From a virus (taxonomy: Duplodnaviria; Heunggongvirae; Uroviricota; Caudoviricetes), in IMG/VR virus record IMGVR_UViG_2529293141_000015, positions 1 to 64,000 of that record: a DNA stretch of 64,000 nucleotides; one strand, given 5' to 3'. Shown here one piece after another: positions 3,001 through 8,923 of this stretch (positions within the stretch are counted from its first letter, which is position 1; every line of letters begins with the position of its first letter). Made by a program: the position numbers.

Positions 3001-6000
3001 TACGTAGCAGGTCACCTATAATGTTGTGCTGCACTGGCTGCACTGGCTGCACTGGCTGCACTGGCTGCACTGGCTGCACTGGCTGCACTGGGGCGATATT
3101 TGGTTTTTTGTCCACTTCCCTTGCAACTGCCTGCCAGATGCCATTTTTTACAGTTACTACCCCCTGGTTTTTTAACTTCCATAGAGTGTCAATAACGTCA
3201 TTCAAATCAATATTGAGACCTTTAGAAATACTTTCGGCTGATGCTTTTCCTAATTTGTTCAATTCTGTGAGCACTGCGTTCATTTTTTTCTCCTGATATT
3301 TTAATGTCGGTGGGGCTGTTATACGGTTAGTGAGGTGTCAGCTTCTTCTACCAGCTTTTCCAGTTCATCCAGCTTTCGGGAAAGAATTTCACCAAACAGA
3401 TGAAGTTCTGCATCTGCTGTAATCGGGATTGGAACAAATCGTATTCCACTTCTGGCAAGTTGATTTGCGATTTCCAGACACTGCCTTAATTCAACTGGTG
3501 ATGCCTTTGTCAACGTCGTTTTTTCGCTCATTGGTTTTCTCCAGAAATTTAACAATACCCGGAACCATCTCAATGGATGGTGTGCCGCATTGGTTACCCC
3601 ATACATCAAATCCATGCGAGGTGTGGCGGGCGAACAGTTCTATCCGGGGAACATCGCCAAGAAGTTGCACAAGCTTTTCTCGAGCCATATCCGGCTTGCG
3701 GGAGTGATCAAGGCGCGGTGCAGTGAATGACTGGATTATTCCGGCGTTAATGCGTTCGGGCAGATTTCCTTTCACTGCAAAAAGGCAGTCTTCGCTGTTA
3801 GCGCGAGTGGTGCTACCCATACCCATGACCAGCTTGTCGGTCTGTCTTTTCCCGCATTTGTTCCAGGTTAATCCTTTCATCGTCACCAGACGAAAGCCCC
3901 ACGCTTCTACAACCTTCAATGCTTCAAGTGGTTGTGTAGGCACCCACCACATAGACAACAGGCAATTATCGGCTGCCAGTTCCCATACCGGGAGGCGGCA
4001 GATATCCAGAAGACTCATGACCGGATATTTAAAACTTGCACCGCGTTGACCATCGGTTGCTTTGTCGCGGAATGTCCAGGGGGGATCTGCGTAAATGAGG
4101 GTGTATTTTTTCGTCATAGCGCGTTTTCAAACTCATCAATGTAAAGTCCTGCTTTAATCAGTCGGCGACGGCGTTCGGCCTTTTGCACGTATTCCTCGCG
4201 ACAGTTTTTTGCTGCGTGTTCACGGCTTCTGCGACTGAATGGAGGAACGGCATTGCGTGAGCGAGGTGTGTCACGACGAGGATTTGATTCGAGGGAGAAA
4301 AAGCGATCAACGATTCCGGTGTCTGTGGTGAATGGTTCTGAAGCCTTTATTTTCACAACCTTACTGCCCTTTGTCAGGCCGCGAGCTACCTTGTTGAACT
4401 CGCAAAGTGAAACACCAAATTTCTCTGCTATTTCACTGCCAGTAACAGGACGACCACGAGACTGAATCATCCAGGTGACGCGTTCTTTTAACCCACGGAA
4501 GGCACCGGGCCTTCCAGAACGCCTGTAGAAAGCGATCTGTTTCAAATTTTTGTCTCCAGATATGAAAACCCCGACGGGATGTCGGGGATGGTAGGGGAAG
4601 TTACAGGCTTAACGAGAAGCCTTTTCGGGAATTTCGATCTGACAGTCTTGAAATATCCTGTAGCGTGCGGCGCATTTCTTCCGTCAGATGTTTGAAGGCG
4701 TTAAATTCAGCGACAGCGGCGTCAACGTTATAGCCCTTGCTGTGTAGCTCGTTGAGGATGCGCATAGTTGGGCTTGGCATATCGAAGAGCACAGAAACGT
4801 CCAGGTTAAGAGTTTTTCGATCAACATAGCTCATCATGGAGTATGGGTGATGCTCAGAAAACCACGAGAGAGGGTAGTTGATAGACAGCGTTGATTCTGG
4901 AAGCTGAAGTTGTTCTGGAATTTTCTGGCTGAAATAGCAGTCTTCCAGTTTTTCGAACACCTCCCACGCCCGATCGGTTTCGAGCATTTTTGCGTGACGG
5001 GCAGCGCCGCGTTCTGTCCAGAGGATGAGGGAGCGAACGTTACGGGCGATTTTCACAGAGTAGTTAAAAGCTACTCTGTGCTTGAACTCACGTAAAGTTT
5101 CACCTTCAAGTTTGAAGAAGTGTTTTTCCTCAATGAAACGACCTTTGTTTTCGTGGTGATTCTGGCGAATACGAATAGCTTCTGTGCCGTAAAGGTGCGC
5201 CAAAAGTTCGGTAGTGATAACGGGGATCTGCTTGTAAGTAATCGTGGAGAGTGTTTCAACAGAAACTTGAGTTGTCATTATGACGCCCTCGAGTGGTTTC
5301 TAAACTATCACCACCGTTAGGTTCGAATCATCGGGTGGTGAGACGTACAGGGTTCGAACTACCGGGAAACCAACCGGCGAGCTTTTCAGCTCCCCTATAC
5401 GCCCCACCATAATTCAGATGTGCGCGTGCATACGACAATAAAAAACACGCTCGCGGCGTGTCTCTGTCGCGGTTTCTATCCGGGGTTCGAATCCCGACGG
5501 TCAACTCGACCGTGCGAAGAATATAATCCCGGATATGTGTTGTCGTCAACAAGTGGCGTGCTATCATCGAATAGTGTTCTATCCTACTCAGTGAGGTTTA
5601 ACATGCGTACAACCCAACAATTCAGCATTACATTAACCAACGAAATGGCTGACATGGTGCGCGCCCGTGTGGCTTCCGGTGCATACGCTTCAGAAAGCGA
5701 AGTTATTCGTGAAGGGCTTCGTGCACTGAATGAACGCGACAAAGCAATGGAAGCGTGGTTAATACACTCAGCCGCGCCGCCACTCGACGCTATTCGTGAG
5801 AACCCAGGCAAAGGGCACTCCATTTCACAGGTTCGCTCTGAGATTCGCGCCCGGAAGTAATCTGCATGGCATATGAAGTGCCACACTAACAAACTGCTCC
5901 AGGTATGGGAATAGTGTCACTTGCAGCACCTATTAGAGATCCGATAATGAACATCATAGCAAGGTTCTTTTATTTGATAATTTTCTGCATGGCAACATCA

Positions 6001-8923
6001 GGATGCACTACCACTACGAAAATAAATCGCGGAGATGAAAAGGAACAGTACATCATTGCCTGTGGTGCCGCTACACCATGGGGAGTATGCTATGATAAAG
6101 CCAATGCCCTATGTAAAAATGGATATAAAGACATTTTAAAGGAACAGGGATTTAACAGGAAAGAATTAACCATTGAGTGTAAATAAGGCCATCATTTGCA
6201 ACGTTGAAAAAATTCGCCCGTGCTACAGGGGAAAAAACTCCAGATCCGCTTCGTTTAACTACGAGGATTACCACTAATGGCGATGTTTACCCCCCCTCAT
6301 CCCGGAGAAATTATTGCTGATATTCTGGAAGATCAGAATATTGGAATCAGGGAACTGGCAAGAGCGCTTGATGTCGCGCCTTCCACTGTTCAGCGACTGG
6401 TTTCAGGTAATGCGACAATATCTCCTGAAATGGCTGTTCGTCTCGCTGCTGTCCTGGGTGGAACTCCGTCTTCATGGATTCGTCTCCAGACGGCATGGAG
6501 CCTTGAAAAAGCGGAAAGAGAAGTTGACGTATCTCATCTCTCAACAAAATACCGCCCGGCAGAAATTTCGCCTCATGCTTAACCACCGCGCCGTCATTCT
6601 GGCGGCGTCGGAGAGTGGAGGATATCAGGTTCCGAACTCTGCTTTGTTCTCCGCGTCCAGGATTTCTTCAATCTTCCGTACTCCCCGATTATTGTATCGG
6701 AAGCTTTCTACCTGCTTATCCGAATACGGGGATTTGTCGATGAACCATTTCCCGTATTGTTCTGTTTTGAGCATGTAGGTATTGGCAATGCGACCAACCT
6801 TGTTAGCGGATATTTTGAGTTGTGATCCAACTTCTGACGCCGAATAGTAATGTTCATTGATCATCGGTAGCGGGATTACGTTAGCGCCTACAACGGGATT
6901 AACCAGGCTGGCGGCAACGACCTGTTTAGCTTCCGGTGCAAGGTTAGGGAGGAAGTCGAAGAGGTCCTTCATTGTGTCGACGGTCATTTTCAATGCGCGT
7001 GCCTTACGGAATTCTTCAAGGCCATCCGGTGATTTCTTCGTGGTGGTTTTTTGTTGCAACTGCTGTTGCATTGATTCCAGTTTATCGACCAGCGAACGAC
7101 GAACGGCCTTCGACTCACGCGCGGCTACTCGCAGGGCTTGCTTGAAAGTCATTGTTATAACTTCTATTTCTGCGCCGTTTTTCTGACCTACGAAAATTTC
7201 GTAGGTCTCTCCTTCAAGCTCATCCTTAACTCTGGCAATGAAATCATTATTGCGAACGGGCCTTTCACTACATAATTTCCGTGCCTCATTGACCATTTTC
7301 AACAGCATCTGGCTGTCGATTGTTGCAGCCGGAAACGAAGACTGATTTGCAATATTGTTAATCATGTATTCTGTCCTTTTCAGATAAAAGAAATCCCCGC
7401 GAGTGCGAGGAAGTCAATCACTGCCGATATTCACCTTTATCGCGAACACCTTTACCGGTTTATCTCCGAAGTGTGTATGTGTGATTGTCTTGATTTCATA
7501 CCCTTCATACGGGACGTCAATTCTGCGGCTGGAATCGTCGCGCTTCGGATATCCCTTTGTGATAATCAGACGGTCATATTCCCGGAACATAATTCGCTTA
7601 TTCCAGTAGTCATTACACAGGCGATACTCTTCCGTTTTCTCCCCGCGAATCATGGCATCGAAGTATTCACCTTTGACGGCAAGTTGCAGGTTAGCCACGG
7701 TTAACCTCCTGCGGCGGTTCTGGTAGCGGCATCCAGTGAGTTACGTCATCCAAGATATATCCTGATAAATACGTGAAAGCTCTATATTTTTTGTAATCAA
7801 TTGGATTTACAACCCAGTTCCAATATGCGGCCACGATTTCACCTTGACTAAATGCCAGTAACATTTTGGTGTCTTCCGGCATTCGATCACTACAGCTTAT
7901 CCAACCATCCGGAGTTACCGGATGGGGTCCAGCGAACTCGGGAATGTCAGGACCTTTTCTGATAGCTTTAGCCAGATCCAGCGGGTCATCGTAAAGCCAG
8001 TCGCCAGTTTGTGGGTGATTTGCTTCTGCAAGCTGCGCAGCCCATTCAAGACCATCTTTTTGACCTTGGAGATAATCAAGCGGCAACTCTTCATGCTTAC
8101 TTGCAGGTTCGGCACAATGCAGCATGGCAGCGCGGTGACACCAGATAATCCAGCCAAGCGCCATATCCCATGCCATGTATTCTCTATCGCCATTTTTTGC
8201 CCTACGGCGATCTACAGATTCCCCGAAACGCTTCTCCATAAATAATTCATAGGCTGCTCGTTCATCCGATACTGCTGCCAGTGATGCCAGTGCAATTCGT
8301 GCCAGTTCCCTAAGATTTTCGCTATATGGTGAAGTATTATCACGATTGATTACGTGATTAGCTGTATCTATGAGAACTTGCTTTTGTTCTTCTCTGTTCA
8401 TAGTGGTCATCTCACTCTCCTTTGATGCGAATGTTTACAGCCTGGCAAGCTTCTTCGAGTACCCAGTCAACAGCGTCTTTCCACGCACCAGTCCCAACTG
8501 ACGGATTCTCATTTTTTACCTGCTCATAAAAACGCACCGCTTTAATCAGTCCTTCAGGTACTACTGGCGATGGCTGTTTAGCTTCTAAATCAGCAATTCT
8601 GTCCACCACGGCATCTACTGCATCTGAAAAACCGAACCAGTTACTCCACTCAGGCCTATCCCCGGTTGCTGCAAAATACATATCAGCTAAAGCAGACTCA
8701 GCATGGTCACGCTCGTTAATGAGTTGCTCTTCGCTTTTCTCCTGTTCGGCTATGCGCTTACTTCCATCCGCGATTACTCCCTCTGAAGTGGTTTACTGAA
8801 TTTGGCCACCTGAACAGAGGTGATATGCTCACCTCAGAACAACACAGGTGCCATAATGAAAAAAAGAAATTTCAGCGCAGAGTTTAAACGCGAATCCGCT
8901 CAACTGGTCGTTGACCAGAATTA

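Follow-up and report, generated by a model that had tools for sequence, protein, structure and literature searches.

The 64,000-nucleotide stretch of phage DNA analyzed here (positions 1 to 64,000 of the IMG/VR virus record IMGVR_UViG_2529293141_000015, class Caudoviricetes; referred to below as the window) carries, within an otherwise minus-strand early region, an island of three plus-strand open reading frames (ORFs) at positions 5603 to 6582. A ParD-family antitoxin gene and a HigA-family antitoxin gene flank the gene for a small cysteine-rich lipoprotein. The island is not a new three-part system. It is a recombination patchwork in which toxin-antitoxin (TA) cassettes without their toxins stand beside a spliced-in lipoprotein gene, and it is very probably to be explained as a scar left by recombination at a cargo slot of Shiga toxin (Stx)-converting lambdoid phages, together with a moron lipoprotein. 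The evidence lies in the apparently intergenic DNA, which a first reading made from the sequence alone had overlooked and which consists of stubs of four genes, namely, parE, a gene for a 121-amino-acid protein, a third antitoxin gene, and higB.

Three intact genes and four gene stubs

The coordinates of the three ORFs and the minus-strand orientation of the genes on either side were confirmed. The first ORF, parD (5603 to 5860, plus strand), is an intact, orphaned gene for an 85-amino-acid antitoxin of the ribbon-helix-helix (RHH) type; its family was upheld by PF03693 (E value, 1.5e-7; 32.1 bits; cutoff, 21) and TIGR02606 (53 bits; cutoff, 46.2), and it also matches phrog_6494 (E value, 2e-58). 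The third, higA (6277 to 6582, plus strand), is likewise intact and orphaned and encodes a 101-amino-acid HigA-family protein with an XRE helix-turn-helix (HTH) domain, as upheld by the TIGR02607 equivalog model (87.2 bits; cutoff, 47.7) and matched by PF01381 (E value, 4.8e-10). The lipoprotein gene (5947 to 6186, plus strand) lies between them. In agreement with the sequence-only reading, no canonical toxin accompanies either antitoxin, and no ParE or HigB homologue is encoded anywhere else in the 64-kb window. The locus therefore fails as a functional type II TA module, whether bipartite or tripartite, because the defining feature, a toxin, is absent: the window has no ORF for ParE, HigB, or Gp49. 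The toxin-gene stubs that persist beside each antitoxin gene bear out the view that both antitoxins are orphaned. Alignment with relatives from complete Escherichia coli genomes and phages accounted for all bases between the three ORFs as remnants of deleted genes. As aligned, the island is made up of four spliced segments; the junctions are clean, and no DNA is left unexplained.

The first segment belongs with parDE. Among 80 loci with ParD homologues in diverse bacteria, 69 have a ParE-like ORF directly downstream (start at -20 to +60 nucleotides from the parD end), or 72 when three offset alignments lying 77 to 124 nucleotides past the parD end (one of them at 124) are counted; two of the 80 are cut by contig ends. 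Directly downstream of the island parD there is no cognate parE, of which an ATG and four homologous codons remain. Positions 5540 to 5879 align with intact parDE loci through the promoter, parD, a 5-nucleotide spacer, and the first five parE codons, and there the alignment ends. The parE stub (5866 to 5879, plus strand; MAYEV...), defined by alignment with the parDE locus of RM10466, reads ATG GCA TAT GAA GTG, compared with ATG ACA TAT GAA GTC in the intact gene; its frame then enters foreign DNA and reaches a stop at 5889, whereas in the Stx phage ArgO145 and in prophages of the E. coli RM10466 type a full ParE (PF05016) continues past this position. ArgO145 (NC_049918, gp08/gp09) has the same integrase, methyltransferase, and antirepressor left arm and the same slot as the window, and it is collinear with the window from position 3000 to exactly 5879 at 95.6% identity before running on into the complete toxin gene. 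Unlike the window, it carries intact parD and parE, no lipoprotein gene, and no higA. The parDE cassettes of ArgO145 and the RM10466 type share with the window the promoter region and ParD residues 1 to 47, which are identical, while the window differs from them in having five parE codons left and a diverged C-terminal half of ParD.

The second segment, positions 5880 to 6186, is homologous to part of a module found in a P22-like phage (contigs L006 and L007), and the homology to L006 ends at the stop codon of the lipoprotein gene. In the P22-like phage the module is complete and has no antitoxin genes; a gene for a 121-amino-acid protein is followed, after 10 bp, by the gene for a 79-amino-acid lipoprotein. 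The window, in contrast, holds only the 3' part of this module, beginning with a remnant of the 121-amino-acid gene (5880 to 5936, plus strand) that comprises the last ~18 codons and the stop codon, as seen in the DNA alignment with L006. A tblastn search placed amino acids 104 to 121 of the protein at 5880 to 5933 with 78% identity. The complete partner gene (L006 4625 to 4990) gave a weak match to the BamE domain (PF04355; E value, 0.0016, below the cutoff), and the donor module may therefore encode two envelope proteins.

Directly after the lipoprotein gene, alignment with the E. coli JNEC-KY176 prophage (KY176; contig L004) identified the 3' end of a third antitoxin gene, an HTH-type gene that is now frameshifted (6187 to 6258, plus strand). 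By tblastn, amino acids 81 to 96 of this antitoxin map to 6189 to 6236 (94% identity) and amino acids 94 to 102 to 6229 to 6255 in another frame, one extra G in the window being the cause of the frameshift; its partner toxin in KY176 is of the Gp49/HigB2 type (PF05973). The remnant is followed by the higB stub (6255 to 6276, plus strand), which was defined by alignment with the intact higBA of the E. coli JNEC-KY179 prophage (KY179; HigB, WP_000597785; HigA, WP_001240641). Directly upstream of higA, the place of the toxin gene in this reverse-order TA type, the window thus has no higB beyond its last seven codons (LNYEDYH) and a stop that overlaps the higA start; HigB of KY179 (PF05015) has the C terminus ...ILNYEDYH. 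Positions 6255 to 6610 are 99.7% identical to the last 22 nucleotides of higB plus higA in KY179. Over higA itself (99.7% nucleotide identity), a single nucleotide differs, which results in one amino acid change, N5T. A GC-rich hairpin predicted after higA (6586 to 6611, plus strand) forms the right-hand end of the conserved higA module, since homology among the window, KY179, and KY176 stops just past it; it has no T tract and so is no canonical intrinsic terminator.

KY176 resembles the window in its methyltransferase-regulator-antirepressor left arm and in the junction of the HTH-antitoxin 3' end, the higB stub, and higA. It differs in that the Gp49 toxin gene and the complete HTH antitoxin gene are still present, where the window has ~70 frameshifted bases, and the right half of the island is likely to derive from a KY176-type arrangement. 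The KY176 slot (L004 2659 to 5069) also holds further cargo, namely, a DUF805 gene and two hypothetical genes, in addition to the Gp49/HTH pair fused to the orphan higA. In KY179, the module formed by the C4 antisense RNA, the small RNA (sRNA) isrK, and the ORF6N antirepressor (L002 4463 to 4645), which the window shares, directly abuts the intact higBA. Homology between KY179 and the window spans C4 and isrK to ~5535 and then splits into each cassette's own promoter, and the window lacks both the higBA promoter and all of higB but seven codons. Because ArgO145, KY179, and KY176 carry different cassettes there, the slot to the right of the antirepressor/C4/isrK module is a swap point for TA cassettes among Stx phages. 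Canonical parDE in ArgO145, where the lipoprotein gene is absent, and canonical higBA in KY179 are findings of the kind that, on the terms of the sequence-only reading itself, refute a three-part system.

The lipoprotein and its relatives

The middle ORF has the lipobox ATSGC and the four further cysteines first described for it, but it is 79 rather than 80 amino acids long when read from its conserved ATG at 5947; in the PGAP annotation, the start is a GTG at 5914. The protein consists of a signal peptide, the lipobox ATSG/C, and a mature 60-amino-acid domain, with MNIIARFFYLIIFCMATSG before the cleavage site and CTTTT... after it. The lipobox satisfies the PROSITE-type pattern, with an unusual Thr at position -3, and the four cysteines that follow the lipobox Cys are at positions 39, 48, 56, and 78. 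Lipoproteins of E. coli whose residue +2 is other than Asp are sorted to the outer membrane. We infer from the sequence that the protein is cleaved and lipidated at Cys20 and, since residue +2 is Thr here, sorted to the outer membrane. The export topology of such proteins is established, the mature lipoprotein being periplasmic, and the mature domain is probably periplasmic here and probably holds two disulfides. AlphaFold (AF2) predicted the structure with a predicted local distance difference test score of 88.8 over the full length and 91.6 over the mature part, with residues 3 to 16 as a helix and the mature part as a beta-beta-alpha-beta-beta domain. GC content is about 0.39 to 0.41 over the lipoprotein gene, versus about 0.49 to 0.55 over parD.

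The lipoprotein has no match in Pfam, NCBIfam, or the PADLOC defense models and matches no toxin model; a match to LpqV (E value, 0.11) was dismissed as weak. It falls into phrog_9924 and, weakly, phrog_5685, both families of unknown function. Cor, Llp, and Bor are small outer membrane moron lipoproteins that are encoded by prophages and expressed in lysogens. No sequence match to these characterized exclusion and conversion lipoproteins was found, the PHROG families being the only hits. An exhaustive search recovered 129 representative homologues, mostly of 70 to 100 amino acids, where a word-indexed search had given three clusters. In the family alignment, the lipobox Cys is present in at least 90% of members, one further Cys is invariant, and three more are present in at least 90%, giving the consensus ...EYxIxCGAxxxWxxCYxxAxxxCPxGYxTLSxxxGFNRKELxIxC; 64 of 66 members fit the lipobox pattern, and the lipid-attachment site is the only Pfam domain found among them. 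The window lipoprotein retains all conserved family residues. This unnamed four-Cys lipoprotein family of phages and Proteobacteria is a modest lead.

The genomic contexts of these relatives are varied. A homologue with 82% amino acid identity is encoded between gp16 and the tailspike gene of the P22-like phage, a distant one lies between the ejection protein genes and mnt in a Salmonella Lederbergvirus (presumably the position at which P22 has sieA), and others are chromosomal, in a Pseudomonas-like genome and in Stutzerimonas stutzeri. In the latter (L008 5001 to 5249), phoX and an imuA-imuB-dnaE2-like mutagenesis cassette flank the gene, a setting with no relation to phages or TA systems. 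No antitoxin gene neighbors the lipoprotein gene in any of these four loci. Because the contexts of its relatives are free of antitoxins, the lipoprotein is a mobile envelope protein in its own right rather than the toxin that pairs with ParD or HigA. The suggestion that it occupies the toxin slot as a non-canonical effector controlled by both antitoxins accordingly finds no support, given its import from a P22-like phage module and homologues that have no antitoxin neighbors.

Origin and expression of the island

In the explanation that we favor, an ArgO145-like parDE cassette would have been cut after parE codon 5 and joined to a P22-like fragment consisting of the tail of the 121-amino-acid gene and the complete lipoprotein gene. 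This fragment would in turn have been joined to a KY176-like arrangement in which the Gp49/HTH cassette was already fused to a higA without higB. All three toxin genes would have been lost in this way, with two antitoxin genes remaining intact. Decay that begins with the toxin is the sole viable order, because a cell that loses the antitoxin first is killed, and intact antitoxins beside deleted toxins are therefore expected from survivorship.

The island ParD shows 87% amino acid identity to the ParD proteins of intact parDE pairs, and the differences are unevenly distributed. Codons 1 to 47, which encode the DNA-binding RHH half, contain eight synonymous and no nonsynonymous differences from partnered parD, whereas codons 48 to 85 contain 11 synonymous and 11 nonsynonymous differences, so that 11 of 38 residues are altered. 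The C-terminal half is the toxin-binding half in characterized ParD proteins. We considered decay after toxin loss as the cause of this divergence and rejected it, since synonymous changes are equally raised (11 versus 11). Because synonymous divergence is also raised in the C-terminal half, the alignment suggests that the island ParD probably descends from an older allele of different specificity.

A sigma-70-like promoter with an extended TG (TTGTCG-16-TATCAT; 5540 to 5567, plus strand) precedes parD, and of the 63 nucleotides before parD, 58 are the same as in the intact parDE locus of RM10466. Between 5600 and 6600, a consensus scan found no further plus-strand promoter-like site, and plus-strand terminator-like sites were absent. 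The P22-like fragment came without its donor module's promoter, and higA is without that of higBA. From the lone plus-strand promoter-like site, the absence of internal plus-strand terminator-like sites, and these missing promoters, the island is probably one operon, autoregulated by ParD. In this model, parD, the lipoprotein gene, and higA would be cotranscribed from the parD promoter and repressed by ParD through its unchanged RHH domain, and the lipoprotein would be made in lysogens at a low level set by ParD. It would act on the envelope as a lysogenic conversion (moron) protein, most plausibly in surface or receptor modification or in superinfection exclusion, and would need no antidote. 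An antitoxin-like control of the lipoprotein thus survives from the sequence-only reading insofar as the gene is probably transcribed from a ParD-autoregulated promoter; as an antidote relationship it does not, the arrangement being an accident of splicing. A repeat finder detected no inverted-repeat operator upstream of parD.

Promoter-like sites stand back to back at 5520 to 5567, with the plus-strand parD site facing a minus-strand site at 5549 to 5520 (TTGACG-18-TATATT; 10/12) that would serve isrK, C4, and the antirepressor gene. Each TA cassette arriving in the slot, of the parD or the higB type, seems to bring its own -35-like TTGAC(G/A) for this minus-strand promoter. We speculate that ParD binding might also touch the minus-strand isrK/C4/antirepressor promoter.

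Several points weigh against the recombination scar as we describe it. Searches of E. coli genomes and phages did not turn up the exact parDE allele from which the C-terminal half of ParD came, the nearest being 87 to 88% identical. The promoter scan is a crude consensus match, which returned four sites where 2.1 are expected. Cotranscription, autoregulation by ParD, and processing of the lipoprotein are read from sequence features, and the order of the recombination events is not one that present-day sequences can establish.

A genuine tripartite module, with the lipoprotein as an envelope-acting toxin or exclusion effector restrained by the ParD-like and HigA-like antitoxins, is extremely improbable. 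Such a module would fit a lipoprotein ORF that sits between two antitoxin genes, with no toxin present, and that probably shares their transcript. However, the toxin-gene stubs show that this adjacency was born of deletion and insertion, and relatives without the lipoprotein hold canonical parDE and higBA in the slot. The 82%-identical lipoprotein gene of the P22-like phage has no antitoxin nearby, distant homologues are stand-alone chromosomal genes, and the compartments differ, ParD and HigA being cytoplasmic DNA- and toxin-binding proteins and the mature lipoprotein periplasmic. Moreover, the arrangement is a single near-clonal allele; of 5,426 complete E. coli genomes, 42 have the island, without exception in the same arrangement and with at least 99.7% identity over the lipoprotein cassette. 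The same near-clonal distribution would suit the view that the whole island is inert debris, its antitoxin and lipoprotein genes hitchhiking, poorly or not expressed, and awaiting deletion. The presence of four junctions and as many gene stubs in 1 kb, the loss of the native upstream gene and promoter of the lipoprotein gene, and the unusual lipobox Thr at -3 speak for this view. We nevertheless regard it as doubtful, given three intact ORFs with plausible start contexts, a conserved promoter and ParD RHH domain, a lipoprotein with all conserved family residues and a confidently predicted fold, and the retention of the island in phages of several serotypes (O157:H7, O111:H8, O43, and O22:H8).

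It is also unlikely that the orphan antitoxins are kept for use in trans against ParE or HigB of prophages, plasmids, or TA-based abortive infection by the host, thereby aiding Stx phage establishment or replication. HigA, one amino acid from a partnered HigA, very likely still binds the HigB of that pair, to judge from this similarity. Related parDE pairs (85 to 88% identity) are common, occurring in 323 of the 5,426 complete E. coli genomes, but a second parD-type locus is present in only 5 of the 42 island-bearing genomes, a count that also speaks against a role of the island antitoxins with a toxin resident in the same genome, a reading that we considered and rejected. All 42 genomes and about 45 phage records have both antitoxin ORFs intact while the neighboring antitoxin stub is frameshifted, yet survivorship after toxin loss would leave them intact in any case, and diversity (at least 99.3% identity) is too low for a test of purifying selection. 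All 11 amino acid differences in ParD fall in its C-terminal half, and neutralization of the common ParE allele is accordingly uncertain. The same idea was put forward by the authors who isolated phages phi346 and phi349, in whose report DefenseFinder did not flag the orphan antitoxins as antidefense genes and a classic antitoxin is noted to have no verified case of such a role (PMC12502783). Orphan antitoxins are abundant in E. coli generally, and anti-addiction roles for them have been discussed (PMC10790755). Quite unlikely, in our estimate, is a combination in which the toxinless antitoxins act as anti-TA factors in trans, HigA and perhaps ParD disarming HigB or ParE of resident prophages or of abortive-infection TA systems of the host, while ParD sets the expression of a captured surface-modifying lipoprotein, for example, one for superinfection exclusion. 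If true, a phage would here, in a first verified case, be using classic type II antitoxins against TA systems.

Phage setting and relation to known systems

Positions 5300 to 6900 of the window are 99.3 to 99.4% identical to Stx2a-converting E. coli prophages and phages, among them the O157:H7 argW prophages, PA2, PA8, Stx2a_F765, VT2phi_272, and many Stx2a_JNE records. The RefSeq annotation of one matching prophage lists on one strand an integrase, a small HTH protein, an MT-A70 methyltransferase, a 143-amino-acid protein, and an ORF6N antirepressor, then on the opposite strand a ParD-family antitoxin, a hypothetical protein, and a HigA-family antitoxin; to the right of the island, minus-strand early genes resume and continue through to exo, bet, and gam. 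From this gene order, the region is the early-left arm of a lambdoid Stx-converting phage. To the left of the island, the ORF6N antirepressor gene (4601 to 5278, minus strand) has upstream of it the C4 antisense RNA (5331 to 5414, minus strand; Rfam, 70.1 bits) and the Hfq-binding sRNA isrK (5440 to 5513, minus strand; Rfam, 53 bits), both above their gathering scores. C4 and isrK (5331 to 5513), together with the antirepressor gene, are the fixed left border of the variable slot. The three elements correspond to a P1/Gifsy-like antirepressor control module of the immI type. ARAGORN found no tRNA in positions 1 to 12000, despite tRNA-like GGTTCGAA motifs in 5300 to 5560, a region that Rfam assigns instead to the C4 antisense RNA and isrK.

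To the right of the island, a 246-amino-acid ORF (6625 to 7365, minus strand) is intact in the window, while its counterpart in O157:H7 strain M1300706002 (L001 7325 to 8063) is annotated as a frameshifted pseudogene. Farther on lies an IS3-family transposase-like ORF pair (8820 to 10003, plus strand), with orfA at 8820 to 9158 and orfB at 9185 to 10003. A second, inverted copy is located near ~50736 to 51740 on the minus strand, as seen from duplicate tblastn matches at 9000 to 9089 and 51739 to 51650; if the IS3-like reading holds, the prophage carries two insertion sequence copies.

Earlier work has already described the two orphan antitoxins of this type of phage. Phage phi346 is at least 99.3% identical to the window over parD and encodes an identical lipoprotein, and orphan ParD and HigA have been reported in phi346 and phi349, with their role called unclear in the passages retrieved (PMC12502783). 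In that source, a term search did not find the word "lipoprotein," and its retrieved passages mention neither toxin-gene stubs nor a mosaic origin. The three RefSeq protein accessions gave no literature match, and our term and accession searches, within the text they reached, returned no published account of the toxin stubs, the third-antitoxin remnant, or the P22-like origin of the lipoprotein. The stubs and the mosaic origin explain the locus and reveal no new kind of system. Collectively, these findings document a hotspot for TA-cassette exchange next to the antirepressor/C4/isrK module in Stx phages and mark the four-Cys lipoprotein family as a candidate whose function could be studied in lysogens of Shiga-toxin-producing E. 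coli. They also provide a cautionary case, in that gene adjacency in phage cargo slots can mimic a new multigene system while leftover stubs, here of 14 to 72 bp, disclose the history of splicing. What we take to be the nearest described tripartite layout with ParE-family parts is paaR2-paaA2-parE2 of an E. coli O157:H7 cryptic prophage, in which an XRE-type regulator is the extra component. That system differs from the island in having a real ParE toxin and no lipoprotein, whereas the window has the lipoprotein and no toxin.

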